Shown here piece by piece: positions 14,337-34,017 of a DNA stretch of 44,231 bases. The translations under genes were made by a program, and so were the position numbers. The DNA comes from a virus, in IMG/VR virus record IMGVR_UViG_3300003830_000002; one strand, 5' to 3'. Position 1 is the stretch's first letter, and each line of letters starts with the position of its first letter. The notes beneath the pieces were generated by a model that saw only the letters and a list, made by a program, of their open reading frames with translations, was not told where the DNA came from and searched no databases.

Positions 14337-14338
14337 CC

Positions 14339-16924: not shown

Positions 16925-16953
16925 GTCCGCTTCCTTGTTGAGTTGATGGGCTG

Positions 16954-19432: not shown

Positions 19433-19824
19433 TACTTCTTGCCGTTTTCAAGTTTGCGATTTTCCGGCTTATGGTCCGGCCGTGTGGCATTGAATGCCAG
19501 TTTTTCAGCGATAGCGCCGCCAAGATCAAGACCCAAGGCGCCCGCCAAATCTGCAATGCGAATCACGGCGTCGGCAAGTTCCACTTCAACCATAGGGCGG
19601 TGCGGGAGCTTGTCGTCGGGTAAATTCTTGCGGTGGCCTTCCATGGCTTCGGACACTTCCGAAACAATGAGCATGAGCTTTTCACCCACAACATGGGGCC
19701 GGTCGATAATCGGCGCCCCGGTTTCCAAATCATTCCACCAGCCCGCGGCCACGCTGGCACCGTGGCAAATCCGTACAAGTTCATTGCCGCACGACACGGC
19801 CAATTTGTTGTCGTTCATCTTCAT
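19429..19824 (-). CDS. MazG-like nucleotide pyrophosphohydrolase
   Basis: Motifs LMLIVSEVSEAMEGHR and EVELADAVIRIADLAGALGLDL are typical of MazG-type NTP-PPases. ATG 19824 was chosen because the longer track ORF runs into the upstream hairpin. Confidence 0.7.
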   Translation of the reverse strand: MKMNDNKLAVSCGNELVRICHGASVAAGWWNDLETGAPIIDRPHVVGEKLMLIVSEVSEAMEGHRKNLPDDKLPHRPMVEVELADAVIRIADLAGALGLDLGGAIAEKLAFNATRPDHKPENRKLENGKKY

Positions 19825-19843
19825 TTTGAATTCCAAAAGTGAG

Positions 19844-19870
19844 CCCGGCCCCGAAGGGCCAGGGGTTTGA
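19844..19870 (-). terminator. Possible intrinsic terminator/attenuator between the SSB-like and MazG-like genes
   Basis: A GGCCC-cgaa-GGGCC hairpin, extendable by CCC/GGG with one bulge, is followed on the minus strand by ctcaCTTTTgg. The stem is short and the T-tract weak. Confidence 0.3.
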
Positions 19871-19871
19871 G

Positions 19872-20882: not shown

Positions 20883-20896
20883 TTGGAAAACTCCTA

Positions 20897-22039: not shown

Positions 22040-23097
22040 TATCGGGCCGCAATCATGGCGTCGACCTTGGCGGCAACCTGGGCCACAAGGTCAAGACGGT
22101 TTGCCAAAAGGGGCAGCGCGGGCACGCCAGCGGCGGCGCAGCATTGCGTTATTTCGGCTTGCGTCACCTTGCCCGCCTGGATTGCAGCGGAAGCGCGGCC
22201 CACCAGCCCCACGAATTGGGCGCGGGCGTCTTGCGGCACTTCACCGACCGGAGCGGCCAAAGGCGCGGGCGGCGGTGGGGCAACCGGGGCCACTGGTGCG
22301 GTCGGGGGCGCGGGGACAGCTACGGCCGAAGAGACAACCCCAGCGGTCGGCATTGTCACAGTCGCCGCCTGTGGGGCAGGGATAGGGGCGACCGGAGCCA
22401 AAGGGGCGGCGGGGGCGGCGGGGGCGGCGCCCATAACCTGGCGCAATTCAGCTTCAACCGTGACAACCAGCGCCGGGTCGACGCCGCGTTTCTTGCGCCA
22501 TGTGCCGTCGGCAATCTTGGCTTTGCTTTCGGCATGAATGCGGCCATCCCACGGCAAGCCGGTTTTGTCCAAATCAACGGCGCCGACAGGGCTCCCGGTT
22601 TGGGGTGCAGCAATCGCCGCCGCGGGTGCGGAGTTCGGTGCAGGGGGTACGGGGGCGGTCGGTATCGCGGCAAAAGTAGTCGCCGTCGTATCCGCGGGGG
22701 CAGTCAAGGACGGAGCGGCAACCGCAATAGAGGGGGCAGCGGTTGCCCCAAGGGGCAAAGGGGGCGGGGCGCTCCCGAAGACGGCCGCGGCGTTGGCATC
22801 GCCAGCCGGGGCGCCGAATGCCACGGAAGCGTCGAACTCGCCGCCCTCTTTGGCAAGGTGCGCAATTTCATCATTCAACGCCAGCACGGCGCCGACTGGA
22901 TTTGCTGCAACGGCCGCGGCAACGGCGGTCGGCACGCGAAGGGTTACGGCTTCCGTGTTGTCGTGAATCTCAGCCGCGACGCTGGTGTGGCAAGTGCCGC
23001 CGCACGCCTTGGACGGGTAAGCCAGAATGAAGCCCGCGACGGCTTCGCGTTGTTCCTGAGTCAGCCCGGAAGGGTCGACGGTGATTTGCATGGACAT
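22039..23097 (-). CDS. Ala/Pro-rich low-complexity protein with conserved GLPWDGRIH motif (unknown function)
   Basis: 352 aa and first gene of the minus-strand operon. Short structured islands (N-terminal 60 aa, VDLDKTGLPWDGRIHAESKAKIADGTWRKKRG, C-terminal 60 aa) are separated by A/P tracts. Confidence 0.65.
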   Translation of the reverse strand: MSMQITVDPSGLTQEQREAVAGFILAYPSKACGGTCHTSVAAEIHDNTEAVTLRVPTAVAAAVAANPVGAVLALNDEIAHLAKEGGEFDASVAFGAPAGDANAAAVFGSAPPPLPLGATAAPSIAVAAPSLTAPADTTATTFAAIPTAPVPPAPNSAPAAAIAAPQTGSPVGAVDLDKTGLPWDGRIHAESKAKIADGTWRKKRGVDPALVVTVEAELRQVMGAAPAAPAAPLAPVAPIPAPQAATVTMPTAGVVSSAVAVPAPPTAPVAPVAPPPPAPLAAPVGEVPQDARAQFVGLVGRASAAIQAGKVTQAEITQCCAAAGVPALPLLANRLDLVAQVAAKVDAMIAAR

Positions 23098-23128: not shown

Positions 23129-23157
23129 TTGACCGCGGGGCTATTGTTGCCGATAAT
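23129..23157 (+). promoter_or_regulatory. Sigma70-type promoter TTGACC-N17-GATAAT for the methyltransferase gene
   Basis: Hexamers and the 17-nt spacer were counted by hand. It lies 31 nt upstream of ATG 23188. Confidence 0.5.
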
Positions 23158-23171
23158 GACGCAATCGTCAA
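23143..23171 (-). promoter_or_regulatory. Sigma70-type promoter TTGACG-N17-AACAAT for the minus-strand replication operon
   Basis: The minus strand reads gtgTTGACG attgcgtcattatcggc AACAAT. It physically interleaves with the plus-strand promoter at 23129-23157. Confidence 0.45.
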
Positions 23172-23187: not shown

Positions 23188-24411
23188 ATGATATTGAACT
23201 TAGATTGCCGCCACGGTTTGGCAATGCTTCCTGATAACAGCGTCGACGCCATCCTTACCGACCCGCCCTACGAAATCGGATTTATGGGCAACGCCTGGGA
23301 CCGCTCCGGCATCGCCTACGACGTCGCCATGTGGCGCGAAGCCTTGCGGGTCTTGAAGCCCGGCGGCCACATTCTGGCATTCTCCGGGTCGCGCACCTAT
23401 CACCGGATGACATGCGCCATTGAAGACGCCGGGGCGGAAATTCGGGATTCCATCATGTGGGTCTACGGCTCCGGGTTCCCCAAGTCTTTGGACATTTCCA
23501 AGGCGCTGGACAAGCTGGCAGGGGCCGACCGTCAAGTGGTGGGCCAGCAATACCGGGCGGCAACCGGACGCGACGAAGGGTACGGCTTCGGGGAGAGTTT
23601 CGACATTACCGCACCGGCTACCCTGGCCGCGCAAATTTGGGAAGGCTGGGGCACGGCACTAAAGCCAGCGCATGAACCGATTTGCGTAGCCCGCAAGCCG
23701 CTGGCACTGGGCACTGTGGCCGCCAACGTGCTGGCGCATGGTGTGGGCGGGCTCAATATTGACGGCTGCAGGATTGCCATTGACCCAGCGGCGGACGCTT
23801 CCCAGCTTCGCACCATGGCCGTAAGCCAGCATGACGGGGCCGACGGGTGGGGCATGAACACCAGCCGCGCAAATCCGGCCGCCCGTGTGCTGGGTGAGGA
23901 AGGGCGTTGGCCTGCAAATTTCATTCATGACGGGTCGCCGGAAGTGCTGGCAATGTTCCCGCAAGCAACCGGCGCAAAAGCACCAGTGCGGGGCACCGAA
24001 GGAAGCCCGGCCAGCGACGGCCAGGTGGGCAACTTCCGGGAGCGTGTCGCCAGCGCGGAGCCCCGCGGGGACGCTGGAAGCGCCGCCCGGTTTTATCAGC
24101 AATGCGCCTTCACTCAAGACGATTTGGAAGCCGCCTTGTTTCACTATTGCGCGAAGGCCAGCAAGCGCGAAAAGGGCGCCGACAACACCCACCCGACCGT
24201 TAAGCCTATCGCCTTGGGGCGCTACCTGGCCCGCCTCATTTGCCCGCCCGGCGGCACTTTGCTGGACCTGTTCGCCGGGTCGGGTTCGTTTGGCGTTGCT
24301 GCAAAACTAGAGGGCTTCGGCTTCGTCGGCTTTGAGAAAGAAGCCGGGTCGGCAGATATCGCAAACCGCCGCCTAGTGCTGCTTCCCGTTGCCTTCGGTG
24401 CTTGTGCGTAA
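23188..24411 (+). CDS. DNA methyltransferase, N6A/N4C type (DPPY motif IV before motif I; beta-class order), no partner endonuclease seen
   Basis: Motif IV ILTDPPYEIG lies near the N-terminus and motif I FAGSGSFGVAA near the C-terminus; 407 aa. Confidence 0.8.
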   Translation: MILNLDCRHGLAMLPDNSVDAILTDPPYEIGFMGNAWDRSGIAYDVAMWREALRVLKPGGHILAFSGSRTYHRMTCAIEDAGAEIRDSIMWVYGSGFPKSLDISKALDKLAGADRQVVGQQYRAATGRDEGYGFGESFDITAPATLAAQIWEGWGTALKPAHEPICVARKPLALGTVAANVLAHGVGGLNIDGCRIAIDPAADASQLRTMAVSQHDGADGWGMNTSRANPAARVLGEEGRWPANFIHDGSPEVLAMFPQATGAKAPVRGTEGSPASDGQVGNFRERVASAEPRGDAGSAARFYQQCAFTQDDLEAALFHYCAKASKREKGADNTHPTVKPIALGRYLARLICPPGGTLLDLFAGSGSFGVAAKLEGFGFVGFEKEAGSADIANRRLVLLPVAFGACA

Positions 24412-24753
24412 TTTGCTGATGCGTACAAAGTCACCTTTGCCGGGCAACTTGGCTTGCCAAAAGTCCCAGCCGTTCGTCGGCCGGTGTGTGATTTTTCCGG
24501 CGGCGCTGGATACGCTGGTGAACCGTTCGTCCTGTATTTCAATCATGCCGTCTTTCACATGGCCCCAATACGGACGGTCTTTGTACCACGCAAGCAATGC
24601 CGTACCTTCGGGGAAGGTCACGCCTTCCGCAGTCGTCAAGCCTTCGGGCTTGAGCTTCAAGGCTTCGCGCAAAACTTGGTCGGCATTCAGATTACCGAGC
24701 GCCAGGGCTTTGGCGACGTCCGCGCTGATTGTTACTGTCTTAGGCTTGTTCAT
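24373..24753 (-). CDS. Hypothetical protein with DUF4357-like C-terminal motif
   Basis: ATG 24753 follows GGAGA. FTSVSSAAGKITHRPTNGWDFWQAK resembles the SPSAAA..NGW..W signature of DUF4357-type domains. Its 3' end overlaps the methyltransferase 3' end by 39 nt, convergently. Confidence 0.55.
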   Translation of the reverse strand: MNKPKTVTISADVAKALALGNLNADQVLREALKLKPEGLTTAEGVTFPEGTALLAWYKDRPYWGHVKDGMIEIQDERFTSVSSAAGKITHRPTNGWDFWQAKLPGKGDFVRISKLRTSTEGNGKQH

Positions 24754-24791
24754 GCTGGTTTCTCCTGGTGGGTTAGCGTACAATTTCATTA

Positions 24792-24807
24792 TTGACGGCA
24801 TCGTCAA
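24792..24807. promoter_or_regulatory. Inverted repeat TTGACG-gcat-CGTCAA in the divergent region (back-to-back -35-like hexamers)
   Basis: Seen directly. The hexamer matches the -35 used by the other promoters, but I could not find a convincing -10 at 17 +/- 1 nt on either strand. Confidence 0.35.
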
Positions 24808-24825
24808 CAAATTCAAGTCGGAAAA

Positions 24826-24844
24826 TAGATAAATGATTTACCTT
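24826..24844. promoter_or_regulatory. Degenerate copy of the 19-bp operator (TAGATAAAT G ATTTACCTT)
   Basis: The left half-site is perfect and the right half-site has 2 mismatches. It lies 34 nt upstream of the helicase ATG. Confidence 0.4.
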
Positions 24845-24877
24845 TGCGAATTATCAATAAAAAGGAGGGGTCACTAA

Positions 24878-26629
24878 ATGCCGGTCGAACTTCGCCCATT
24901 TCAAGCCGAACTTGAGCGCCGCGTGTACGAAGCCTGGCACGGTGGGGCGCTAAATGTCATGCCTGTGGCCGCCACGGGGTCCGGTAAAACCGTGATTCTG
25001 TCAAAGGTGCTTTACGACGAACCGGGCGCATCTATTGCCATCGCGCACCGGCAAGAACTGGTAAGCCAAATTTCCATTGCCCTGGCGCGTAACGGTGTAA
25101 GACATAGGATTGCTGGCGCTAAAAAAGGTTCAAACTTAATTAGGGTCATAAGTGCGCTGCAGGTTGCGGAATTGGGTTACAGCTTCTTTGACCCGAACGC
25201 GAAGACCGGGGTCGGCGGCGTTGATACCGTCATACGCATGGACGCTTCGGACCCATGGTTTAAGCAAGTGCGGCTTGTGGTGCAAGACGAAGCGCACCAC
25301 GTCCTAAAAACGAACAAGTGGGGCATTGCCGCCGAAATGTTCCCCAATGCGCGGTCGTTGCTCCCAACAGCTACACCACTCCGGGCGGACGGTAAGGGCC
25401 TGGGGCGGCACGCGGACGGCCTGGTCGACGCAATGGTGCTGGCGCCATCCATGCGGGACATTATCGACATGGGGTATTTAACGGATTACCGCATTTTTGC
25501 GCCGCCGTCCGACCTTGACCTTACCCAAGTTGCTTTGAGCCAGGCGACCGGGGACTTCAACGCGGACCAACTCCGCAAGGCCGTCCACAAATCCCACATT
25601 ACCGGGGACGTGGTGGCGCATTATCTCAAGCTGACGCCGGGTAAATTGGGCGTCACGTTCGCCGTCGATGTGGAAGCCGCGACCGAAATTGCGGCGGCGT
25701 TCCGTGCGGCCGGTGTGCCCGCGGAAGTGGTGAGCGCCAAAACCCCGGACGCCCTACGCTCCCAAATTCTCCGGCGCTTCAAGGCGCGGGAAATCCTGCA
25801 GCTTGTCAATGTGGATTTGTTCGGGGAAGGCTTCGACCTTCCAGCAATTGAGGTCGTGAGCTTCGCCAGGCCGACGGAATCGTTCGCCCTGTTCTGCCAG
25901 CAATTTGGCCGGGCCTTGCGTTTGATGCTATCCAAAGCAGCCGGGGCCGTGCATGCCCATTTGACGGACGCCCAACGCAAGGCCGCGATTGCCGCCAGCG
26001 AAAAGCCGGTCGCCTACATCATTGACCATGTGGGCAACGTGCTACGCCACGGGCTCCCGGATGCAAAGCGCGAATGGTCATTGAACCGTCGGGACCGCAA
26101 AAGCGGCGGCAAGTCTGACGCCATCCCCATGCGTGTGTGCGTCAATCCTGAGTGCATCCAGCCCTATGAGCGAATTTATAAATGCTGCCCATATTGCGGC
26201 CACTACCCGCCGCCGCCATCCCGGAGCGCCCCGGAGTTTGTCGACGGTGACTTGCTGGAACTGGACGCCGAAACCCTGGCCGCCTTGCGCGGGGAGATTG
26301 GGCGCATTGACGGCGACCCGGTCATTCCATACGGTGCGGCCCCGGAAGTGGTGGGAGCGGTCAAGCGACGCCATTGGGAACGCCGGGAGTCGCAAAACAA
26401 TTTGCGGAACGTGATTGCCTGGTGGGCTGGCCTTGAGAGTGCCCAAGGTCGCGGAGAGTCTGAAAGCTACCGCCGGTTTTATCACCGATTCGGCATCGAC
26501 GTCGCCAACGCGCAAACCCTCAACGCAAAGGACGCCGGGGAGCTTGCCGAACGTGTCCGCGTCGAGCTTGCAAAAAATGGAATTGACGGAACCGTCAACG
26601 CCGCGTCATACTTTGCAAATCAACTTTAA
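24878..26629 (+). CDS. SF2 DEAD/DEAH-box helicase with C-terminal zinc ribbon
   Basis: AAGGAGGGG Shine-Dalgarno. Walker A is AATGSGKT, the DEAH box is VQDEAHH, and the zinc ribbon is CVNPECIQPYERIYKCCPYCGH. Confidence 0.8.
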   Translation: MPVELRPFQAELERRVYEAWHGGALNVMPVAATGSGKTVILSKVLYDEPGASIAIAHRQELVSQISIALARNGVRHRIAGAKKGSNLIRVISALQVAELGYSFFDPNAKTGVGGVDTVIRMDASDPWFKQVRLVVQDEAHHVLKTNKWGIAAEMFPNARSLLPTATPLRADGKGLGRHADGLVDAMVLAPSMRDIIDMGYLTDYRIFAPPSDLDLTQVALSQATGDFNADQLRKAVHKSHITGDVVAHYLKLTPGKLGVTFAVDVEAATEIAAAFRAAGVPAEVVSAKTPDALRSQILRRFKAREILQLVNVDLFGEGFDLPAIEVVSFARPTESFALFCQQFGRALRLMLSKAAGAVHAHLTDAQRKAAIAASEKPVAYIIDHVGNVLRHGLPDAKREWSLNRRDRKSGGKSDAIPMRVCVNPECIQPYERIYKCCPYCGHYPPPPSRSAPEFVDGDLLELDAETLAALRGEIGRIDGDPVIPYGAAPEVVGAVKRRHWERRESQNNLRNVIAWWAGLESAQGRGESESYRRFYHRFGIDVANAQTLNAKDAGELAERVRVELAKNGIDGTVNAASYFANQL

Positions 26630-26638
26630 GGGGCAATC

Positions 26639-26914
26639 ATGGAAAACAAATGCGCCGTTCGCGGCATGATAGGTCGCGGCGCCATGTGTGGGCAAATTCT
26701 TGTTGGCGGCCAGGGTTGCGGCTATGCCGGAGCGTGCGAACATAAACAGGCCGGGTCGACATGGTATGCAATCAAGCATGACGGCGGGGACGTGGTGGCA
26801 ACTGGTGCCAGCTATCGAGAGGTGAGCGACGCGGCTTTTGCCGCCATGCCTTGGGGTGGCAATCCTGCTGGCGAAGTTGCCCCCTACTATCTCACGACAT
26901 TGGCTCCCGCATGA
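26639..26914 (+). CDS. Hypothetical Cys-rich protein
   Basis: 91 aa, coupled by ATGA to the next gene. No family recognised. Confidence 0.55.
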   Translation: MENKCAVRGMIGRGAMCGQILVGGQGCGYAGACEHKQAGSTWYAIKHDGGDVVATGASYREVSDAAFAAMPWGGNPAGEVAPYYLTTLAPA

Positions 26915-27396
26915 CACCCCACGTCTACCAATGGGCCGCCCGGCACGGTGTAAGCATGCAAGCCCTTCACGAACTGCAAGCCCTCTTTGGCATGAACGGC
27001 GGCCACGATCTACCGCCGACCGTCAAGGGCACCAGTGAAGCGGCCGTGCAATCCGCTGTGCGCCTGGAAGCGGCACGCAAGGGGGTGCGCCTGTTCCGCA
27101 ACAACGTCGGCGCCCTGATTGATTCCCGTGGCGTGCCGGTGCGGTATGGCCTGGCGAACGAATCCAAACAGGTCAACGAGGTTATGAAATCGGCGGACCT
27201 TATCGGCTGGCGGCCGCTGCAAATTGAGCAACACCACGTCGGGCAATGTGTGGCCGTCTTCGTGTCCCGCGAATGCAAAAAGGTTGGCTGGCAATATACC
27301 GGGGACGCGCACGAACTGGCGCAACTGGCTTGGGCGCAACTGGTCACGGCTTCCGGCGGCGACGCGGCCTTTTGCACCGGAGAGGGCACGCTATGA
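26911..27396 (+). CDS. VRR-NUC domain nuclease
   Basis: ATG 26911 is in an ATGA overlap. The pattern EAAVQSAV...GVRLFRNNVG...SADLIGW...FVSRECKK...ELAQLAWAQLVTASGG fits the VRR-NUC E..D..EVK..Q layout. Confidence 0.65.
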   Translation: MTPHVYQWAARHGVSMQALHELQALFGMNGGHDLPPTVKGTSEAAVQSAVRLEAARKGVRLFRNNVGALIDSRGVPVRYGLANESKQVNEVMKSADLIGWRPLQIEQHHVGQCVAVFVSRECKKVGWQYTGDAHELAQLAWAQLVTASGGDAAFCTGEGTL

Positions 27397-28094
27397 AAAT
27401 TCAAACATGCCCGGAATGTGGGGAAATTTTGCCGGTTGTTGATGCTGATAAGGTCGCATGCGACGCCTGTGGTACTTGCGTCGATTACGATAAACCCAAG
27501 CATGTGATTGCTCTATCGGGCGGTAAGGATTCGACGGCGCTGGCGTTGCGCTTGATGGAAGTTGAACCCCGCGACTATGAGTTCATTTGCAATTACACCG
27601 GCAACGAACTTCCCGAACTGTTCGACCACCTTGAACGCATGGAACAGCTTTTGGGTAAGCCAATAAAGCGCGTCGCCTACCATACCGACCTTTATGGGTT
27701 GATTGATGAAACCCAAATGCTGCCCAATTTTCGCGCCAGGTTTTGCACCCGCGTTTTGAAGATTGAACCGACCATAGAATATTTCGAGAGTTTGCCAGCC
27801 GGTTCCGTGTTATATGTTGGACTCCGGGCCGACGAAGAATTGCGCCAAGGTCTTTTTGGTGAAGATATTGTGTCGCGGTTCCCCATGCGGGAATGGGATT
27901 GGGGCATAAAGGAGGTTTACAGTTATCTTGACGACCGGGGAATTTGCGTGCCGACGCGGACTGATTGCGCCGTATGCCCTTTCCAACGCCTTGGGGAATG
28001 GCGCGACCTTTGGCTAAATAACCCCTTTGAATATTGGAGGGGGGGCCGCCGTGGAAATGCACTACGGCCACACGTTCCGAAGCCCTGGTCGTGA
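27393..28094 (+). CDS. PAPS-reductase-like PP-loop protein with N-terminal zinc ribbon; reading frame broken at a G7 run (intact form would end at 28197)
   Basis: ATG 27393 is in an ATGA overlap. The PP-loop is ALSGGKDSTA. After GGGGGGG (28039-28045) the assembled frame yields 17 unrelated residues before the stop. The +1 frame continues as AAVEMHYGHTFRSPGRDTWPASLVDLAKEFERGRP..., which looks like the natural C-terminus. Confidence 0.7.
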   Translation: MKIQTCPECGEILPVVDADKVACDACGTCVDYDKPKHVIALSGGKDSTALALRLMEVEPRDYEFICNYTGNELPELFDHLERMEQLLGKPIKRVAYHTDLYGLIDETQMLPNFRARFCTRVLKIEPTIEYFESLPAGSVLYVGLRADEELRQGLFGEDIVSRFPMREWDWGIKEVYSYLDDRGICVPTRTDCAVCPFQRLGEWRDLWLNNPFEYWRGGRRGNALRPHVPKPWS

Positions 28095-28200
28095 TACCTG
28101 GCCCGCAAGCCTTGTCGACCTTGCAAAAGAGTTTGAGCGTGGGCGCCCAATCCGCAAGAGCAAGCGCGACGAAACGTGCCGGGTTTGTTCTCTCTGACCG

Positions 28201-28229
28201 TTGACGGCCCCGTCACCATAACGCATAAT
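28201..28229 (+). promoter_or_regulatory. Sigma70-type promoter TTGACG-N17-CATAAT without operator, upstream of the TetR-like gene
   Basis: Hexamers and spacer were counted by hand. It lies 30 nt upstream of ATG 28259. Confidence 0.5.
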
Positions 28230-28258
28230 GCACCAACTATTCACCGGATACCCTTACC

Positions 28259-28561
28259 ATGCGCCTACACCCTGACAACCGAAAAGAACAAATCATTGAT
28301 GCCGCCGTGAAGGTCGCCGGACAGCCTGGGGGCTGGGCAAAGCTGACACGCGAAGCCGTCGCCCGTGAAGCCCAATGCGCCGAAGGGCTTATTTCAAAAT
28401 ATTTCGGCACCATGATTACGTTTCGACGCACCATCATGCGCCACGCAATCAAGGCCGCGAACCTGTCCGTCGTCGCCCAAGGTTTGGCGGCCGGTGACAG
28501 CTATGCAAAGAAAGCCGACCCGGAGTTGAAGGCCCGCGCACTCGAAACCCTGGCAGGTTGA
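28259..28561 (+). CDS. Short TetR-like HTH DNA-binding protein (DNA-binding domain only)
   Basis: RKEQIIDAAVKVAGQPGGWAKLTREAVAREAQCAEGLISKYFGT follows the TetR_N pattern. At 100 aa it is too short to carry a ligand-binding domain. Confidence 0.6.
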   Translation: MRLHPDNRKEQIIDAAVKVAGQPGGWAKLTREAVAREAQCAEGLISKYFGTMITFRRTIMRHAIKAANLSVVAQGLAAGDSYAKKADPELKARALETLAG

Positions 28562-28564
28562 CCA

Positions 28565-30958
28565 ATGCGCGAACTTCCACCAGCTTTAGGGCCAATGGGT
28601 GCATATCGACAATTTATTGTTTATATGGCGCAACCCAGCCGAACACGCCCCGGCAAAACTGACAAATTCCCCGCCGACTTCCGCTCCGGCCGTGTGGTAT
28701 CCGCGCACGACCCCTCCTTTTGGACGGACCACGCGACCGCCATTGCCGCCGCCACGACGCTGGGTGGCTCCTACGGCGTGGGGTTCGTTTTCACGGAAGC
28801 CGACCCCTTTTGGTTTATCGACCTTGATGGTTGCCTATTGCCCGACGGTTCCGATTGGTCCCCGGTAGCAAAGGTGCTTTGTGGGGCGTTTGCTGGCGCC
28901 GCTGTGGAAGTGAGCCAAAGCGGCCGGGGCTTGCATATTTTCGGAAGCGGCCGCCCGCCCCTGCATGGTTGCAAAAATGAAGCCCTGGGCCTTGAGTTCT
29001 ACCATTCCGGGCGCTTCGTTGCACTCACGGGCACCAGCGCCAGCGGTAACGCCGCCGCGGACTTTACGCATCTACTACCCAGCCTGGTCGCGCAATACTT
29101 CCCGCCGGACGCCGCGCAAGCCATGGAACAAGGATGGACCGAAGGCCCGGCCGCCGAATGGCGCGGACCTACCGACGACGACGAACTTATCCGCCGGGCG
29201 TTGCGGTCACAATCCACGGCTTCCGCATTTGGGGGCCGGGCCAGCTTTGCGGACCTGTGGACGGGCAACATGGAAGCCCTGGCCCGCGCCTACCCTGACC
29301 CCGCCCGCGGCTATGATTCCAGTAGCGCCGACGCCGCCCTGGCGCAACATTTGGCATTTTGGACGGGCAAAGATTGCGCCCGGATTGATAGGCTTATGCG
29401 CCGTTCCGAGCTGGCCCGTGACAAGTGGGAACGTGAAGACTATTTGCCCCGCACCATCCTGGGCGCCGTGGGCCGTCAATTTGAAGTGCTGACCGACAAG
29501 GCCCTTGAACCTGTGGCCGGTGCGCCAGAAAGCCCGGCACCCAGCGCCAGCACCGAACCGCCCCGGCCGACCATGGTGACGGGCGCCAGCTTCGTGAATA
29601 ACGACATGCAATTGCAACTGTTCGCCGGTTGCGTCTACGTTCAAGACCTTCACCGCGTCCTAGTGCCTGGCGGCGTCATGCTCAAGCCGGAGCAATTCAA
29701 AGTTCATTTTGGCGGCTACACCTTCACCATGGATGCCGCGAACGAAAAGACAACAAAGGACGCATGGGAAGCCTTCACGCAAAGCCAGGCTTACCGCTGC
29801 CCGCGTGCAAATGCCCCATGCTTCCGACCTGACTTGCCGCCCGGCTCCCTGGTGCAGCGCGGGGGCCAAACCTTTGTCAACACCTATTGGCCGGTCGATG
29901 TTCCGCGCAAAGCTGGGGACGGCTCCCCGTTCCTCAATCACTTGGCAAAGGTGTTACCGGACGAACGCGACCGCTTTATCCTGCTGTGCTACATGGCCGC
30001 ATGCGTGCAACACAAGGGCGTTAAATTCCAATGGGCGCCGCTTCTGCAGGGCGTTGAAGGTAACGGCAAAACCCTGTTCACCCGGTGCGTTGCGGAAGCC
30101 GTGGGGCGCCGTTATGTCCATTGGCCCAAGGCGTCAAAGCTGGCCGCGCAATTCAATTCATGGATGATTGGGAAACTCTTTTACGGCGTGGAAGATATTT
30201 ACGTGCCGGACCAAAAGCGCGAAATTATCGAAGAGTTGAAACCCATGATTACCGGCGGCGACGGCCTGGAAATTGAAGGCAAGGGCGTCGACCAAATCAG
30301 CGCGGACGTGTGCGGCAATTTCATGTTCAACAGCAACCACCAAGACGCCGTAAGGAAGACCAAAAACGACCGCCGGTTCTGCCTGCTATTCAGTGCCCAA
30401 CAACAGGCCGAAGACTTGAAGCGCGACGGCATGGATGGTGATTACTTCCCGCGCCTTTATGACTGGCTCCGGGCTGACGGTTACGCCATTGTTTCGGACT
30501 TGCTCCACACGTTCCCAATCCCTGACGAATACAACCCGGCCACACATTGCCAACGGGCACCAGTCACCACCAGCACCGCGGCCGCTATCAGCGCCAGCAC
30601 GGGCGGCGTCGAACAAGAGGTACACGAAGCCATCGCCCAAGGGCTCCCCGGCTTTTGCGGGGGCTGGATATCGTCAATTCAACTCGACCGCCTGCTGGAA
30701 CGCCTGGGGGTTGCCCGCCGCGTCACGCATTCCAAACGTAAAGAAATGCTCAACGACCTGGGGTATGCCTACCATCCCGCCCTTGTGGAAGGTCGCGTCA
30801 ACAATCTGGTATTGCCGGACGGCGGAAAGCCCCGCCTCTTTGTCAAGACCGACAGCCCCGCCCGTGCCATCCAAGGGGCCGCGGAAGCCGCCAAAGCCTA
30901 CGAACAGGCCAACAACCATAACCGCGTGCCGTTCCCCCTGGCGCCCGTGCATCTATGA
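28565..30958 (+). CDS. Bifunctional primase-polymerase (AEP) / SF3 helicase (D5/P4-like)
   Basis: AEP motifs are FIDLDGC and SGRGLHIFG. The C-terminal half carries the Walker A LLQGVEGNGKTLF; 797 aa. Confidence 0.8.
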   Translation: MRELPPALGPMGAYRQFIVYMAQPSRTRPGKTDKFPADFRSGRVVSAHDPSFWTDHATAIAAATTLGGSYGVGFVFTEADPFWFIDLDGCLLPDGSDWSPVAKVLCGAFAGAAVEVSQSGRGLHIFGSGRPPLHGCKNEALGLEFYHSGRFVALTGTSASGNAAADFTHLLPSLVAQYFPPDAAQAMEQGWTEGPAAEWRGPTDDDELIRRALRSQSTASAFGGRASFADLWTGNMEALARAYPDPARGYDSSSADAALAQHLAFWTGKDCARIDRLMRRSELARDKWEREDYLPRTILGAVGRQFEVLTDKALEPVAGAPESPAPSASTEPPRPTMVTGASFVNNDMQLQLFAGCVYVQDLHRVLVPGGVMLKPEQFKVHFGGYTFTMDAANEKTTKDAWEAFTQSQAYRCPRANAPCFRPDLPPGSLVQRGGQTFVNTYWPVDVPRKAGDGSPFLNHLAKVLPDERDRFILLCYMAACVQHKGVKFQWAPLLQGVEGNGKTLFTRCVAEAVGRRYVHWPKASKLAAQFNSWMIGKLFYGVEDIYVPDQKREIIEELKPMITGGDGLEIEGKGVDQISADVCGNFMFNSNHQDAVRKTKNDRRFCLLFSAQQQAEDLKRDGMDGDYFPRLYDWLRADGYAIVSDLLHTFPIPDEYNPATHCQRAPVTTSTAAAISASTGGVEQEVHEAIAQGLPGFCGGWISSIQLDRLLERLGVARRVTHSKRKEMLNDLGYAYHPALVEGRVNNLVLPDGGKPRLFVKTDSPARAIQGAAEAAKAYEQANNHNRVPFPLAPVHL

Positions 30959-31119
30959 GCCCCGGCCACTTCACCAACATGGCGACACTGATTTGCGGCC
31001 CCGCGGGCTTGCTGGTGCGCTATGAGTGGTCGGGGCGATTGCTTCCGCTGGAATTTCTACCGGGGCGCCCGGCGGGTCAAGAGCATCAAGAAAGCGGCGG
31101 CCGTAATCCAAGCCGCTGA
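30955..31119 (+). CDS. 54-aa ORF candidate coupled to the primase gene
   Basis: ATGA overlap with the primase stop. Hand translation gives MSPGHFTNMATLICGPAGLLVRYEWSGRLLPLEFLPGRPAGQEHQESGGRNPSR. There is no independent support. Confidence 0.3.
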   Translation: MSPGHFTNMATLICGPAGLLVRYEWSGRLLPLEFLPGRPAGQEHQESGGRNPSR

Positions 31120-31127
31120 AAAACTTG

Positions 31128-31157
31128 TTGACGCTAGATAAATAATTTAGCTATAAT
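31128..31157 (+). promoter_or_regulatory. Sigma70-type promoter TTGACG-N18-TATAAT with operator in the spacer (drives the pentapeptide/ParB-like operon)
   Basis: The sequence is cttgTTGACG ctagataaataatttagc TATAAT. It lies 41 nt upstream of ATG 31198, which has a GGAGAGG Shine-Dalgarno. Confidence 0.7.
31135..31153. promoter_or_regulatory. 19-bp operator palindrome, 1 mismatch (TAGATAAAT A ATTTAGCTA)
   Basis: Compared with the perfect copy at 32695-32713. It overlaps the -10 hexamer. Confidence 0.65.
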
Positions 31158-31197
31158 TTACCCGTGACATATTTTTAACCACCTGGAGAGGTACACC

Positions 31198-31800
31198 ATG
31201 AAGATTGAAATCAAAAGCCGCTTTTATCTGCAAATCTTGTTCTCACATGAATGCGAAGACAACAGCGTCGCAATTACTTTGGCCGCCGCGATAAACGCGA
31301 AAGCGAACCTTTACGGCGCGGACCTTCGCGGCGCGAACCTTCGCGGCGCGAACCTTTACGGCGCGGACCTTTACGGCGCGAACCTTCGCGGCGCGGACCT
31401 TTACGGCGCGAACCTTTACGGCGCGAACCTTTACGGCGCGGACCTTTACGGCGCGAACCTTCGCGGCGCGGACCTTTACGGCGCGAACCTTCGCGGCGCG
31501 AACCTTTACGGCGCGAACCTTCGCGGCGCGGACCTTGGTGAATCTGGAAAATTGACCGGCGACCGTCCGTTTTTCCAAGTCGGCCCAATCGGTTCGCGGC
31601 AAGACGTTTTAGCGGCGTTCCTCACGGAAAAGGGGGTATTCCTTCGCGCCGGTTGTTTCTTCGGCACTGTGGAAGAGTTCAAGGGCAAGCTGCAGGACAA
31701 ACACGGGGACAACTTGCACGCGGTCGAATACCGCGCCGCTTTGGTGCTGATTGAAGCGCATTATTCCGCCTGGCCCGCGACTGTGACCGAAGGGGAATAA
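31198..31800 (+). CDS. Pentapeptide-repeat protein (16 consecutive A(N/D)L(Y/R)G units) with unique N- and C-terminal domains
   Basis: The translation shows [15 protein letters not shown] ... ADLGE without interruption. It is flanked by a 35-aa N-terminal segment and an approximately 85-aa C-terminal segment ([32 protein letters not shown]...). Confidence 0.85.
31303..31542 (+). repeat. Tandem repeat, 16 x 15 bp, GCG(A/G)ACCTT(TA/CG)CGGC
   Basis: The units were aligned by hand. They vary only at the A/G position and the TA/CG dinucleotide; the last unit is degenerate. The repeat is in frame with the pentapeptide CDS. Confidence 0.9.
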
Positions 31801-31802
31801 GC

Positions 31803-32642
31803 ATGGAAAATTTTACAGACACAATGACCGCGGGCAACGTCAAAGCCGCAATGAAAGAAGTCGGCGCCGTGAGTGCTGACCTGTGGCAAGTCACGCCGGA
31901 CAAATTGCGGGTGCTGGAAGGCTTCAATGCCCGCGTGAAGAATGAAGCGTACACCGGCCGCGTGCGCTGGATTGCTGACAGCATCAAGGCAAACGGCTAT
32001 TACAAGGATAAGCCCCTTTCCGGCTTCGTGGCCCGTGAAGGCGACGACAACGTCATTTATGTGACCGGGGGCCATCGTCGGCATGAAGCCGTTTTGCTGG
32101 CTATCAGTGAAGGCGTGGAAGTGCCCGCCGTGCCGGTTATCGTGAGCCCCAAGGGCACCAGCATGGAAGACTTAACGGTCGCCCTTGTGGTGGGCAATGA
32201 CGGGGAGCCCTTGAGCCTGTACGAAGCCGCGGTCGTGTGCAAGCGCCTGGCGGCCTTCGGCTGGTCTTCCCAAGAGATTGCCCGGCGCCTGGGGTATGCG
32301 TCCGCACAATACGTCGACGGCCTGCTGGCGCTGGCCGGGGCACCCCTGGCAATCCGCAAAATGGTAATGGAAAACGTCATTGCGGCCACGACAGCCATTG
32401 AAGCCATAAAGAAGCACGGGGACAAGGCGGTCGACGTGCTGCTGGCCGCCTTGGTCAAGTCCGGGGGCGGGCGTGTCACGACCAAGCACATGCCGCAAGC
32501 TGAATTCAAAAAGGCCGTGCGCAAGCTGGCCGAACCGATGCACACGGCGTTGACCAAGGTGCAGGCCGACCCCGGCTTCGCCAGCCTATCGGAAGAGGTC
32601 CGGGGTATCCTGGCGGAACTGCTGGGGAGCATCAAGCAGTAG
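31803..32642 (+). CDS. ParB/KorB-like N-terminal-domain protein with HTH (no ParA partner in the genome)
   Basis: ParB box motifs are LRVLEGFNAR and VIYVTGGHRRHEAVLLA. The HTH is SSQEIARRLGYASAQYVDGLLAL. It starts 3 nt after the pentapeptide gene stop. Confidence 0.7.
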   Translation: MENFTDTMTAGNVKAAMKEVGAVSADLWQVTPDKLRVLEGFNARVKNEAYTGRVRWIADSIKANGYYKDKPLSGFVAREGDDNVIYVTGGHRRHEAVLLAISEGVEVPAVPVIVSPKGTSMEDLTVALVVGNDGEPLSLYEAAVVCKRLAAFGWSSQEIARRLGYASAQYVDGLLALAGAPLAIRKMVMENVIAATTAIEAIKKHGDKAVDVLLAALVKSGGGRVTTKHMPQAEFKKAVRKLAEPMHTALTKVQADPGFASLSEEVRGILAELLGSIKQ

Positions 32643-32662
32643 CCAAAATTAAATTTTCAATT

Positions 32663-32684
32663 GCCCGCCGCGTGCGGGCTTTTT
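32663..32684 (+). terminator. Rho-independent terminator after the ParB-like gene
   Basis: Stem GCCCGC-cgcgt-GCGGGC followed by TTTTT, 20 nt after the stop codon. Confidence 0.75.
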
Positions 32685-32688
32685 CTTG

Positions 32689-32717
32689 TTGACGTAGATA
32701 AATTATTTATCTATAAT
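32689..32717 (+). promoter_or_regulatory. Sigma70-type promoter TTGACG-N17-TATAAT with a perfect operator in the spacer
   Basis: The sequence is cttgTTGACG tagataaattatttatc TATAAT. It drives the 99-aa gene at 32750. Confidence 0.75.
32695..32713. promoter_or_regulatory. 19-bp operator, perfect palindrome TAGATAAAT T ATTTATCTA
   Basis: The reverse complement of TAGATAAAT is ATTTATCTA. The operator fills the spacer and overlaps the first two bases of the -10 hexamer. Confidence 0.7.
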
Positions 32718-32749
32718 TGAGCCATCAACAACGCAACGGAGCCCCGAAA

Positions 32750-33049
32750 ATGTCAAACGCCATCGCACAAACCATCCTTGCCCAACTTGGCGGCAATCGC
32801 TTTCTTGCCATGACCGGCGCAAAGGATTTGGTCAACACCGGCAAGGGCCTGCAATTCGCTATCGGCCGCGGCGCCAGTAACAAGGCCAACAAAGTGGTCG
32901 TGACCCTGACCGACGCGGACCTGTACGACGTGCGCTTCCTGACCATTCGCGGCGTCAATATGACCGAACGCGGCACCGTTGAAGGCGTGCATGCTGACCG
33001 CCTGGCCGCCGTCTTCACCGAACAAACCGGATTTGATACCCACATGTGA
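32750..33049 (+). CDS. Hypothetical 99-aa protein, monocistronic unit under the operator-controlled promoter
   Basis: ATG 32750 follows ACGGAG. The product is MSNAIAQTILAQLGGNRFLAMTGAKDLV.... The track start at 32717 lies inside the promoter. Confidence 0.65.
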   Translation: MSNAIAQTILAQLGGNRFLAMTGAKDLVNTGKGLQFAIGRGASNKANKVVVTLTDADLYDVRFLTIRGVNMTERGTVEGVHADRLAAVFTEQTGFDTHM

Positions 33050-33087: not shown

Positions 33088-33663
33088 TTACTTGTAATCG
33101 AAGTCGCCAGGGCGTGGCACTCGCGCCCAATCTGGAACCGGCGCAATAGCGACTTGCGCGTCAAATTTCCCAAAAATTGAAGTCCTGGCCCGTTCGGGAT
33201 TGAAGGCGACCGACGTCTTCGCGTTGAACATATCGGCCGCAATTTGGCGAAGCGTTGCGACGTCGTCCTGATGACAATTGAAAGCATACATTCCGCTATT
33301 TTCCGCCCGGCTATTTGGTGCGAAATGCGTGTCGACGTCCGAGTTGGTCAACATTGGGTAACGCATCATTGCCGTCGCCCACGTAATAGCCGCGAACGCA
33401 TCCCGGTCGGCGTCAAGCAACCTAAAGCGTGCTTGAACAAGTTGCTCTTTAATTAGCCGTTTGAGATTGGCGGCGTCGGCCGCTTCGGTCAATCTAGCGT
33501 TACGCGCAACGGCCGCCGTCGAAACAGCGTCGCCCCGGATGCAATCATAACAAGCCCCGGATTGCGTATATCTAAAAGTAAGATGCCCGTTTTTGCATTG
33601 CTTGCCGGTAAAATATTTGTTATCGCCGTCGCAGACGGCTTGCTTTCGTGTCTTAATTTCCAT
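33088..33663 (-). CDS. Zinc-ribbon protein (regulator candidate), unknown family
   Basis: ATG 33663. The N-terminus MEIKTRKQAVCDGDNKYFTGKQCKNGHLTFRYTQSGACYDC has a CxxxxxxxxxCxxxH...CxxC layout. It is the only minus-strand gene between the early and packaging modules. No clear Shine-Dalgarno, so the start is uncertain. Confidence 0.55.
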   Translation of the reverse strand: MEIKTRKQAVCDGDNKYFTGKQCKNGHLTFRYTQSGACYDCIRGDAVSTAAVARNARLTEAADAANLKRLIKEQLVQARFRLLDADRDAFAAITWATAMMRYPMLTNSDVDTHFAPNSRAENSGMYAFNCHQDDVATLRQIAADMFNAKTSVAFNPERARTSIFGKFDAQVAIAPVPDWARVPRPGDFDYK

Positions 33664-33782
33664 GATCTTTATCAAAGTTAAGATGTTAGCCACGACTATA
33701 TCACACTTTTTTAAGAAAACAAGCACCCCGGCACCGCAACCCCGACGACGTTGAAACCTACGGCGCTGTATACACATCACAT

Positions 33783-33813
33783 CTTACTTAAGATAAGACT
33801 TACTATAAGTAAG
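33783..33813. promoter_or_regulatory. Two adjacent 15-bp palindromes CTTACT-taa-GATAAG and CTTACT-ata-AGTAAG (tandem operator candidate)
   Basis: Seen directly. They are flanked by direct repeats GTATACAC at 33768-33775 and 33824-33831, in the 354-bp AT-rich divergent region. Confidence 0.5.
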
Positions 33814-33853
33814 ACGCTGTAACGTATACACCCTATGGATTTTATATATTTAA

Positions 33854-33949
33854 GGGGTATAGGGGTAAATAGAGTGTAGACCGTTGATTTAATTGAATAA
33901 ATTTTACCCACCCCGTAATTTTTGGCCCTGGGGTAGCAGGGTAAGGGGT
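33854..33949. repeat. Cluster of GGGGTA-like motifs in both orientations upstream of terS (packaging-site candidate)
   Basis: GGGGTA occurs at 33854, 33862 and 33930. GGGTA is at 33939 and GGGGT at 33945. The inverted TACCCACCCCGTA is at 33905-33917. Confidence 0.45.
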
Positions 33950-34017
33950 CCGGCAACCATGGGCGTCGTTCGTTGTGATTGCCAATTGTGGCCGCTAGGC
34001 GCTATCATTGGGCCACT

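Follow-up and report, generated by a model that had tools for sequence, protein, structure and literature searches.

The 19-bp dyad TAGATAAAT-N-ATTTATCTA, which occurs in four copies in the window (the whole 44,231-nt stretch of DNA analyzed here, from the uncultured phage IMGVR_UViG_3300003830_000002), is on sequence grounds a real, conserved operator that is placed in the spacer of promoters and defines a small putative regulon. Its putative role is that of an operator for a phage-encoded binder with two-fold symmetry, a reading to which a probability of approximately 0.85 is assigned. Searching with the pattern TAGATAAATNATTTATCTA at up to three mismatches yields exactly four matches in the window (32695-32713 with no mismatch, 31135-31153 with one, 16958-16976 with two, and 24826-24844 with two) and none in 100 dinucleotide-preserving shuffles, which confirms the palindrome, copy positions, and mismatch counts of the original prediction. 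That prediction had also proposed scanning this genome and its relatives with a position matrix. A weight matrix derived from 98 distinct sites in relatives, with the window sites left out, retrieves exactly the same four sites at 37.5 (32695), 34.4 (31135), 33.2 (16958), and 28.1 bits (24826), compared with 6.2 bits for the next window position and 11.5 bits for the top of 30 shuffles. Three of the four copies occupy the spacer between -35 and -10 boxes, and these three promoters share the architecture described for them, namely TTGACG, a spacer of 17, 18, and 17 nt, respectively, and TATAAT or TACAAT. Of the promoter-like sites between 14.5 and 34.4 kb, the six highest-ranking include all three of these sigma-70-type promoters (10-11 of 12 hexamer matches), with the dyad at approximately -29 to -11 and its final two bases shared with the -10 box.

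The perfect copy lies in a plus-strand promoter of this class (class I) at 32689-32717, which consists of TTGACG (32689-32694), a 17-nt spacer, the dyad (32695-32713), and TATAAT (32712-32717). Transcription from the inferred start at A32724 would cross a leader of ~26 nt, reaching without terminator or hairpin the start codon of a 99-aa gene of unknown function (32750-33049, plus strand; phrog_9437). Directly upstream, an intrinsic-terminator-like hairpin with a T-run (32663-32684, plus strand) closes the ParB operon, indicating that the 32689 promoter is an independent unit. The ParB operon (31198-32642, plus strand), which encodes a 200-aa pentapeptide-repeat protein (31198-31800) and a 279-aa ParB/KorB-like protein (31803-32642), lies under its own class I promoter with an 18-nt spacer (31128-31157, plus strand; TTGACG at 31128-31133, dyad at 31135-31153, TATAAT at 31152-31157). 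The third class I promoter, on the minus strand (16954-16982; TTGACG at 16982-16977, 17 nt, TACAAT at 16959-16954, dyad at 16958-16976), overlaps the end of the DNA polymerase gene, whose stop codon is a TAG within the dyad and whose last codons contain the -35 box. The operon that it precedes (14969-16924, minus strand) encodes proteins of 42 aa, 130 aa, 164 aa, and 139 aa (DUF3310), a 52-aa helix-turn-helix (HTH) protein, and a Cys-rich protein of ~100 aa. The fourth, weaker copy (24826-24844) adjoins a dyad of a second class (described below) in the region that separates the helicase gene from a 126-aa minus-strand gene. Although this copy stands as predicted, its proposed position upstream of the helicase gene does not make it a helicase promoter, a possibility that is ruled out since no -35/-10 pair fits in the plus orientation towards that gene. 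At best, the dyad falls within a weak minus-strand TTCGCA-17-TATTTT facing the 126-aa gene, and it is kept only in the near-identical relative L172 and is absent from L180.

Conservation in related phages, on which the original prediction had been staked, is strong, and the palindrome is always found between -35 and -10 boxes. Approximately 100 distinct related sites in metagenomic phage contigs have the same promoter-spacer architecture, with a spacer of 17 nt in 88 of 100 distinct contexts and of 18 nt in 10. Exact copies in IMG/VR come almost only from related contigs whose GC content is 56-60%, or 44% in two cases, and every one of them lies between TTGACR or TTGCAx and TAtAaT. The information profile of the sites is mirror-symmetric about position 10 (~1.9 bits each at G3 and C17, and ~2 bits each at positions 5-9 and 11-15), a pattern unlike any reading of a spacer by RNA polymerase. 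Positions 4 and 16 are both degenerate and show no covariation within sites (Fisher p = 0.59), and from this alignment they appear to be simply unread positions. Several lineages carry switched versions of the dyad. A variant, TAGTTGAAT-W-ATTCAACTA, forms perfect 9-1-9 palindromes at four promoters in contigs from one sample (L253/L292, L289, and L281) and at a fifth promoter from a different sample (L287), with symmetric changes at positions 4/16 and 6/14. Another lineage (L186) has TATGTAAATAATTGACATA four times, with a symmetric change at 3/17, and the distant contigs L313-L316 have CTTAAG/CTTAAC boxes at the equivalent promoter position. Concerted switches of this kind are not predicted by a universal host factor or by a role intrinsic to the promoter.

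These observations bear on two explanations in which the phage supplies no binder. It is highly improbable that the dyad has no trans factor at all and reflects duplicated promoter cassettes, or an AT-rich spacer selected for promoter strength only. A CATCAAC downstream of the -10 box is partly common among the sites, and tandem arrays of near-identical promoters in three relatives (L001, L029, and L186) indicate that cassette duplication does occur; however, this explanation is at odds with the mirror-symmetric conservation and the matched low-information positions 4 and 16, with the preservation of a perfect dyad between diverging flanks in relatives that have ParB proteins of only 50-99% identity, and with variant lineages that preserve perfect palindromes via paired changes. 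A regulator encoded by the host, which would place the early genes of the phage under a host signal, is very unlikely. The AT-rich dyad loosely resembles the GATAA/TTATC-type boxes of known global regulators, and a few exact copies exist in betaproteobacterial metagenome-assembled genomes. A scan of 185,579 species genomes, however, gave 46 exact matches among which no host regulon was found, nearly all of them in AT-rich genomes, outside promoter context, or within longer hairpins, and the sole match beside phage-like genes (L089) is probably a prophage or mis-binned phage. In addition, phages with GC contents of 44% and 60% have the same dyad sequence, and its concerted switches between phage lineages point to a specificity determinant borne by the phage. 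A Fur-box reading is ruled out by the spacing of GATAA...TTATC, which is 5 nt; neither Fur-box model has this spacing.

The sites, their arrangement, their symmetric conservation, and the lineage-specific changes of the dyad are direct observations; that the dyad represses rather than activates, when its genes are expressed, and which protein binds it are inferred. Occlusion of RNA polymerase, the mode of action named in the original prediction, is the natural reading of a site at approximately -29 to -11 in near-consensus promoters with 17-18 nt spacers and is quite probably how the dyad functions. Host RNA polymerase alone would fire the dyad promoters; as the regulator accumulates, it would fill the spacer and block a productive RNA polymerase complex, resulting in shut-off of, or feedback on, a set of small, variable, and probably early genes. 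The binder would act as a dimer or, in some relatives, as a two-module single chain.

The short, terminator-free leader of ~26 nt, together with near-consensus hexamers and an optimal spacer, fits repression better than activation or antitermination, and it is scarcely plausible that the dyad is instead a loading or activation site (e.g., a Q/AlpA-type antiterminator element or a MerR-type spacer activator site). Proteins of the MerR family bind dyads in promoter spacers, a precedent for such a role, and by reading, the GLTRSAIY motif of the 52-aa protein resembles helices of the AlpA/excisionase type. MerR activators, lambda Q, and AlpA (PMC9371919) all share with the present system a binding site between the -35 and -10 boxes. 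MerR-type activation nevertheless works through DNA distortion and requires over-long spacers of 19-20 nt, as opposed to the 17-18 nt and near-consensus hexamers found here, and is rejected on these grounds. Q and AlpA both require a terminator downstream as well as a sigma-dependent pause, and neither has a 19-bp dyad as its binding element; AlpA acts as a single molecule on a 6-bp element and requires the pause (PMC9371919). Antitermination of the Q/AlpA type was likewise rejected, as it requires a downstream terminator and a -10-like pause element (PMC9371919) and the leader between promoter and start codon lacks a hairpin or terminator.

The leading candidate for the operator-binding repressor, with somewhat better than even chances judging from gene content and sequence comparison, is the 52-aa HTH protein (15354-15512, minus strand), whose gene is fifth in the operon under the 16982 promoter. 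The original prediction, which chose its regulators elsewhere, missed this better candidate inside one of the controlled operons. The window protein itself has only sub-cut-off Pfam matches to HTH_3/HTH_23 (16.2 versus 23 bits) and no PHROG match, while members of its family exceed the Pfam cut-offs (P0046 at 30.5 bits for HTH_3 and P0001 at 27.2 bits for HTH_23), and P0046 also matches PHROG 'transcriptional repressor' families. A sequence search of the family against the PDB gave no meaningful match. The AlphaFold model of the 52-aa protein (single-sequence, as are all models used here) has four helices at a pLDDT of 88.7, and its top Foldseek matches, all weak (E ~1-2), are HTH DNA-binding domains throughout, the best being sigma region 4, KorA-operator complexes, ArdK, and the DeoR DNA-binding domain. 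The protein is thus predicted to have a helix-turn-helix fold; a ribbon-helix-helix protein (Arc/Mnt/CopG) was considered and rejected, as the model is all-helical and lacks an N-terminal strand.

The genomic association of the 52-aa gene with the dyad is close, since every member of the clade has the gene in the operon behind a 16982-type promoter, and in the distant L313-L316 its homologue (hhalign probability 96%, E 4e-9) comes first behind the dyad promoter. The recognition-helix region also differs with operator type (TRSAIYMAPWYK; STSAIYMSQWYK; TVGAISRTQWYK together with AQSTISRAPWYK; SQSAISQNRAYR; and THAAVSQDPLYR), a co-variation that cannot be separated from overall divergence. In a tree of the polymerase, phages with the dyad and those with the 52-aa gene form one clade, with no independent gains or losses of either, so their co-occurrence counts as a single evolutionary event and is partly synteny. 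This phage clade has no close relative among deposited phages, and a search of the literature on promoters of Jedunavirus-like phages returned a general review only. Tandem-fused 99-aa versions of the protein exist, with halves that are 45% identical, which agrees with a binder of two-fold symmetry, although in the model of the fused P0046 the relative position and packing of the two modules are not fixed (pTM 0.45). The small size of the protein counts against it, as a dimer interface would be hard to fit into 52 residues. If the 52-aa protein is the repressor, its production from the controlled operon would make the circuit negatively autoregulated.

The same operon encodes the neighboring Cys-rich protein (14969-15331, minus strand), and the chance that this protein, or a phage protein other than the regulators proposed here, binds the dyad is very small. 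Its four cysteines have a zinc-ribbon-like arrangement, and its phyletic pattern is similar to that of the 52-aa gene. Against this possibility, the protein matches no DNA-binding family, it has homologues beyond the dyad clade as well (L127, L128, L141, and L143), and in L313-L316 the Cys-rich gene is unlinked to the dyad promoter, where the HTH gene comes first.

The ParB/KorB-like protein, which the original prediction held as an alternative repressor, would bind the dyad and repress its own and other operons in the manner of KorB on plasmid RK2. Membership in the ParB family is suggested by a match to phrog_1033 (E 4e-52), an arginine-rich GGHRRHEA box identified by reading, and a ParB-type HTH, with weak, sub-cut-off Pfam matches to KorB (E 0.014) and HTH_ParB (E 0.02). 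The gene sits under a class I promoter, and proteins of the ParB family are palindrome binders that can act as promoter repressors (PMC11790492). However, neither L170 (a 98% identical phage) nor L174 has the gene in its primase-to-terminase interval, which is fully covered, or in the rest of the DNA covered (~63% of L170 and ~73% of L174), and both of these phages keep class I dyad promoters. Conversely, the more distant ParB-bearing L014 and L015 have no 19-bp dyad and instead have, close to the gene, a parS-like TTGTCACG-N-CGTGACAA. The ParB-like protein was therefore rejected as the dyad binder, a role that is very improbable for it, and by this comparison of gene content its gene is accessory, the dyad being retained without it.

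The regulator preferred by the original prediction was a 100-aa single-domain TetR_N-like protein (28259-28561, plus strand), and several features speak for it. Its TetR_N-type HTH scores 23.7 bits against a cut-off of 24, it has a strong PHROG match (phrog_8723, E 2.6e-29, with homologues annotated as TetR), its gene is present in every dyad-bearing relative, and its helix differs in L186, where the dyad is variant. TetR operators are typically dyads of 15-19 bp. The C-terminal ligand-binding and dimerization domain of TetR is absent (100 aa versus ~190-220 aa expected), and relatives of the protein are 92-113 aa long or occur as 166-aa double-HTH forms. Both its distribution beyond the dyad clade and its own promoter, which bears a different dyad, argue that it is not the natural candidate it was taken to be, and its binding to the 19-bp dyad is unlikely. 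A TetR-like gene of ~100 aa, syntenic upstream of the primase gene, is found across a far wider group of phages that lack the 19-bp dyad (e.g., Shewanella SppYZU01, Acinetobacter Scuro, and JD001-like phages). Moreover, two phages (L188 and L122) have nearly the same TetR-like helix with no class I dyad in the DNA covered, whereas in L105, at a single site, the dyad after the polymerase gene and the helix of the 52-aa protein are changed while the TetR-like helix agrees with the one in other phages that have the main type of dyad. The L105 variant, TAGGTTAA-N3-TTAACCTA, was also considered as a regulon-level test between the TetR-like and 52-aa proteins and was set aside, as a viral scan finds it in promoter context only in L105 itself.

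The TetR-like protein more likely goes with a second dyad, TTGACG-N4-CGTCA, which was absent from the original prediction and lies across the -35 box of five other promoters. The other TTGACG promoters had been described as lacking the 19-bp dyad, which is correct, but they carry this different one. The promoter of the TetR-like gene itself is of this class (class II; 28201-28229, plus strand; TTGACGgcccCGTCA...CATAAT), as it is in most relatives, and further class II dyads are located at 20989-21003, 23157-23171, 24792-24807, and 26583-26598. Upstream of TetR-like genes, TTGACG-N4-CGTCA is exact in 32 of 82 distinct regions and present at one mismatch in about a dozen more, and the only two lineages with TTGACA-N4-TGTCA both have a THGxVL helix in the TetR-like protein. 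The distribution of the protein and the dyad in its own promoter thus agree with a putative role in the control of class II promoters. The class II promoter dyad extends as far as Klebsiella JD001-like phages.

The proposed system combines features of several known ones. The lambdoid Cro and CI proteins are HTH dimers on 14-17 bp dyads overlapping the -35 and -10 boxes, and their operators and recognition helices co-diversify into immunity types. The present phages resemble them in the HTH candidate, the dyad overlapping promoter elements, and the diversification of operator and helix, and differ in lacking a tripartite operator, a divergent maintenance promoter, and a CI-like repressor, the dyad being centered in the spacer of several dispersed promoters; no integrase was found among the 37 proteins scanned, which come from outside the structural half of the genome. 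In the TetR/tetO system, as used in PLtetO-1, a 19-bp palindromic operator between the -35 and -10 boxes gives tight repression, which is the geometry of the 19-bp dyad here, although the TetR-like protein of this phage is ~100 aa long, lacks the ligand-binding domain, and is associated with a different dyad. The Arc repressor of phage P22 exerts feedback on early lytic transcription. At the Pant promoter (immI), operator and promoter overlap, and bound Arc hinders RNA polymerase in forming a productive complex (PMC2724298). As proposed here, this ~53-residue repressor is encoded in the operon that it represses. Both operators use inverted TAGA/TCTA boxes, which is a coincidence. Arc belongs to the ribbon-helix-helix proteins and contacts TAGA boxes with a spacing of 5 bp as a dimer of dimers; for the present candidate an all-helical fold is predicted, the operator is a 9-1-9 dyad with a box spacing of 11 bp, and at least three promoters are involved. 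No sequence similarity of the candidate to Arc was found. KorA of the IncP-1 plasmids RK2/RP4 is a small HTH dimer that binds a short palindrome (the OA operators) at several promoters, where perfect and imperfect copies give graded affinity (PMC2665229). The short palindrome at several promoters, in perfect and imperfect copies, is common to the two systems, as is a ParB-family protein on the same replicon (PMC11790492 for the IncP-1 plasmids), and KorA-operator complexes are among the best, albeit weak (Foldseek E ~1-2), structural matches of the 52-aa model. In contrast to the 52 aa and 19 bp found here, KorA is a plasmid protein of 101 residues with a separate dimerization domain and a 12-bp operator, and the ParB-like protein of these phages is dispensable for retention of the dyad, with no sign that it cooperates with the 52-aa protein.

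A broader reading, which is tentative and rather doubtful, holds that two orthogonal pairs of tiny repressors and operators in different parts of sigma-70 promoters (the 52-aa protein with the spacer dyad, and the ~100-aa TetR_N-like protein with TTGACR-N4-YGTCA at the -35 box) run the pre-late program, and that among related virulent phages at least five operator/recognition-helix specificities have arisen from the first pair. If true, this would represent an immunity-like specificity system outside lysogeny, through which co-infecting relatives could cross-regulate or exclude one another; it would also provide a natural set of compact orthogonal repressors.

The mechanism proposed for the 19-bp dyad is classical, and the gain lies in annotation and parts rather than in principle. 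Repressors of ~50 residues, whose 19-bp operators can be accommodated in a 17-nt spacer, would be small building blocks for promoter engineering, and the operator and helix variants would form a natural series on specificity change in a minimal HTH protein. If confirmed, the operator and its binder would provide a regulatory map for an uncultured phage clade, comprising self-limiting, probably early genes and the tiny protein that controls them, to which a second promoter class with its own dyad would be added.

The window has a GC content of 57% and looks like a complete or nearly complete phage genome. Its plus strand carries the structural and packaging genes (33979 onwards and 1-15000). 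The block at 14969-23097, on the minus strand, includes genes for a family A DNA polymerase, a dCMP deaminase and a DUF2800 protein, and a plus-strand block (23188-33049) encodes a DNA methylase, a helicase, a PAPS-reductase-like protein, a 100-aa TetR_N-like protein, an NrS-1-type primase, a pentapeptide-repeat protein, a ParB-like protein and a 99-aa protein. None of 50,697 deposited phages is closely related, the nearest (52-59% primase identity) being Shewanella SppYZU01, Stenotrophomonas B2, Acinetobacter Scuro, and Klebsiella JD001-like phages. The dCMP deaminase (19001-19432, minus strand), the N6/N4 DNA methylase (23188-24411) and the PAPS-reductase-like protein (27246-28094) co-occur with the ParB-like protein, a combination that may point to DNA modification or nucleotide remodelling, possibly with an IbrA/IbrB-like pairing. 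Within 33088-33980, a 191-aa Cys-rich protein (33088-33663, minus strand; phrog_1081), which has homologues in 33 loci, faces ~300 bp of AT-rich non-coding DNA just upstream of the small terminase gene. This DNA contains a 33-bp imperfect palindrome (33782-33814) and GGGGTA-type repeats and may serve as a pac site, as an origin or in late-promoter control.

The predicted 19-bp palindrome, TAGATAAAT-N-ATTTATCTA (the class I dyad), is present where the original prediction placed it, with exactly four matches in the window when up to three mismatches are allowed and no occurrence in 100 dinucleotide-preserving shuffles. Scored with a weight matrix built from 98 distinct sites in related phages, the window being left out, the copies reach 37.5 bits (32695-32713, 0 mismatches), 34.4 bits (31135-31153, 1 mismatch), 33.2 bits (16958-16976, 2 mismatches) and 28.1 bits (24826-24844, 2 mismatches), compared with 6.2 bits for the next-best window position and 11.5 bits for the top of 30 shuffles. 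The shared promoter architecture (TTGACG, 17-18 nt, TATAAT or TACAAT, dyad inside the spacer) was likewise borne out for the first three copies, which lie in TTGACG-17-TATAAT (32689-32717, plus strand), TTGACG-18-TATAAT (31128-31157, plus strand) and TTGACG-17-TACAAT (16982-16954, minus strand); all three promoters rank within the six top promoter-like sites in a consensus scan of the central 20 kb. The spacer is taken up by the dyad, whose final TA forms the first TA of the -10 box and which would cover about -29 to -11 if transcription starts at the conserved CA ~7 nt downstream. Engineered promoters in which a 19-bp operator occupies the spacer have the same geometry. The units behind the dyad promoters are the pentapeptide/ParB operon (closed by a terminator-like hairpin, 32663-32684), the 99-aa gene, and six small genes that form a minus-strand operon (16924 down to 14969). 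Their genes are small, variable among relatives and mostly without known function, as is typical of early genes.

Two further features of these promoters were observed. At 16974-16982, the DNA polymerase gene ends within the minus-strand promoter, such that its last codons form the -35 box TTGACG and its TAG stop forms the first three operator bases, an arrangement kept across the window's clade. Past the -10 box, the motif N5-CATCAAC (32718-32730 and relatives) is partly conserved among class I promoters and is retained even in one related contig (L130) whose promoter is without -35 box and dyad; it is possibly a start-site or leader signal. The fourth copy (24826-24844), predicted as a site upstream of the helicase gene, has no -35/-10 pointing towards that gene; its best promoter is a weak minus-strand TTCGCA-17-TATTTT facing a 126-aa gene, and the copy is retained in a near-identical contig (L172) and absent from contig L180. 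The 126-aa gene itself (24373-24753, minus strand), located beside this dyad between the methylase and helicase genes, has weak RAMA/DUF4357/DUF2924 matches and a strand assignment supported by codon-position GC; the lack of a counterpart in the 98%-identical contig L169 marks it as an accessory insertion.

Searches with the ParB-like protein, with the polymerase and primase, and with the exact dyad supplied metagenomic contigs of related phages. All exact dyads in these contigs, including two of 44% GC, lie between TTGACR (sometimes TTGCAx) and TAtAaT. In 100 distinct contexts, 88 spacers measure 17 nt and 10 measure 18 nt; TTGACA serves as the -35 box 58 times and TTGACG 23 times, and the -10 box varies (TATAAT, TATACT, TATAGT, TACAAT) with the dyad unchanged. 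The information in the dyad is mirror-symmetric (G3 and C17 ~1.9 bits each; positions 4 and 16 degenerate; 5-9 and 11-15 ~2 bits each); choosing sites at ≤4 mismatches inflates the absolute conservation, and does not produce the matched low-information pair. Judged from sequence, such a profile is the imprint of a two-fold symmetric protein, not of RNA polymerase or promoter strength. Loss of the palindrome from related phages had been named in advance as evidence against the prediction; the dyad is conserved there and always in promoter context, so the prediction is not refuted. The observation of the palindrome is confirmed, and its reading as an operator is supported.

Since the hexamers are near consensus and the spacer is optimal, the host holoenzyme should need no help and would use class I promoters unaided, while a putative dimer over -29 to -11 would block it. 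Activation of the MerR type fits poorly, as it requires spacers of 19-20 nt. Loading of the Q or AlpA type fits poorly as well, requiring a pause element and a downstream terminator (PMC9371919), whereas the leader here is ~26 nt and without a hairpin. Under repression by occlusion, the early-gene-like content of the class I units would suggest an early burst followed by self-imposed shut-off.

At the orthologous promoter directly after the polymerase gene, the dyad sequence differs by lineage. One lineage carries TAGTTGAAT-W-ATTCAACTA, a perfect 9-1-9 palindrome via paired changes at 4/16 and 6/14. Three contigs of a single sample (L253/L292, L289, L281) have it at four promoters, and L287, of another sample, has it at a fifth, all with the same -35/dyad/-10/CAT layout. 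Contig L186 has TATGTAAATAATTGACATA (a paired 3/17 change) at four tandem promoters and TAGGTAAATAATTGCCATA at two, and contigs L313-L316 have CTTAAG/CTTAAC or CTTAAA/TTTAAG boxes in the same promoter position. These concerted switches speak against a host factor common to the lineages, as well as against a role solely in cis, and indicate that the dyad is read by a phage-encoded factor. Among 185,579 species genomes, 46 exact dyads were found, almost all in AT-rich genomes and outside promoter context. The sole copy beside phage-like genes, a perfect dyad on a 643-kb contig of a betaproteobacterial MAG (L089, 4977-4995), is flanked by a primase-like gene (63%) and a gene sharing 70% identity with window 7351-8226; another palindrome, TCGAAATTTCGA, lies at the next promoter. 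The locus is probably a prophage or a mis-binned phage.

Two phage proteins had been proposed as the regulator, and neither proposal is supported. The ParB-like protein (31803-32642) is of ParB/KorB type (phrog_1033, E 4e-52; a GGHRRHEA box; weak KorB and HTH_ParB matches). Against its candidacy, its gene is missing from the primase-to-terminase interval, covered in full, of L170 (98% identical to the window phage) and L174, both of which have class I promoters, and two more distant ParB carriers (L014, L015) have no class I dyad. The latter carry a parS-like palindrome, TTGTCACG-N-CGTGACAA, near the ParB-like gene (L014 6748-6764, L015 6979-6995), and their promoters have GACACCGC-TCA-GCGGTGTC-type dyads beginning in the -35 box. 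In L174 (16609-19038), the large terminase homologue falls into two matching segments ~1 kb apart, followed by a minus-strand class I promoter; the split suggests an inserted element (intein or homing endonuclease).

The other proposed regulator, the TetR-like protein (28259-28561), has a single helix-turn-helix domain and ~100 aa in the window and in most relatives; two such domains in one 166-aa chain are found in Shewanella SppYZU01 (L017 38065-38565) and Acinetobacter Scuro (L018 21424-21924). Its conservation upstream of the primase gene group-wide, including phages without the class I dyad, speaks against it. A second dyad missed by the original prediction, TTGACG-N4-CGTCA(A) (class II), starts with the -35 box at five other promoters (20989-21003, 23157-23171, 24792-24807, 26583-26598, 28201-28215), with 12 matches on both strands at ≤1 mismatch against 0.79 expected, and is conserved as far as JD001- and PEAT2-like phages. 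This dyad usually precedes the TetR-like gene: among 82 distinct upstream regions, 32 have an exact copy 53-118 nt before the gene, and about a dozen more have a one-mismatch copy. The dyad becomes TTGACA-N4-TGTCA in Scuro and L190, the only two lineages with the TetR-like helix THGxVL; asymmetric TTGACA...CGTCA forms are also present, and the G-type dyad is found alongside very different TetR-like helices. A pairing of the TetR-like protein with the class II dyad is plausible from these patterns, making it a poor class I candidate.

A 52-aa protein (MAARESAAMVKARKMVTEQGLTPYAAAAKVGLTRSAIYMAPWYKAWKLEQKK; 15354-15512, minus strand), encoded by the fifth gene of the operon behind the 16982 promoter, is a better candidate for the class I binder than either, on circumstantial grounds. 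The window protein has weak HTH_3 and HTH_23 matches and no PHROG match; its family comprises 371 small homologues, with members above Pfam cut-offs and matching PHROG 'transcriptional repressor' families. The AlphaFold model has four helices (pLDDT 88.7), and the PDB folds closest to it are sigma region 4, KorA-operator complexes, ArdK and the DeoR DNA-binding domain, all at E ~1-2, as expected for only 52 residues. The distribution of the gene is that of the class I dyad, a co-occurrence that amounts to a single event and is partly synteny because it covers one clade on the polymerase tree. The association extends to the more distant L313-L316, where the gene that comes first behind the dyad promoter encodes a homologue (hhalign probability 96%, E 4e-9). 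The L246 lineage (L246 3335-3634) and the homologues P0001 and P0046 have 99-aa tandem fusions of two 52-aa modules with halves 45% identical, which fits a protein working as a pair; one fusion protein sits by a variant perfect palindrome, TAGTTGAATAATTCAACTA, at the promoter that follows the polymerase gene. Each operator type goes with a different recognition-helix region, but helix and operator both vary with overall divergence. A Cys-rich neighbour (14969-15331) is a less likely candidate for the binder.

In logic, the putative class I system would be nearest to P22 Arc at Pant and KorA/OA of IncP-1 plasmids. Arc, 53 residues long, represses the very operon that encodes it, through an operator lying within the promoter (PMC2724298), and KorA is a small HTH dimer that binds a palindromic operator at seven promoters with graded affinities and acts beside a ParB-family partner (PMC2665229, PMC11790492). 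The 52-aa model is all-helical, in contrast to the ribbon-helix-helix of Arc, and its similarity to KorA is weak, so that membership in either family is not supported by the model. The putative class I system is a new member of a classical kind, and its likely mechanism is not new; what adds interest is how small the candidate repressor is, the range of variant operators, and the presence, over a wide group of phages, of a second class of promoters that has a dyad of its own.
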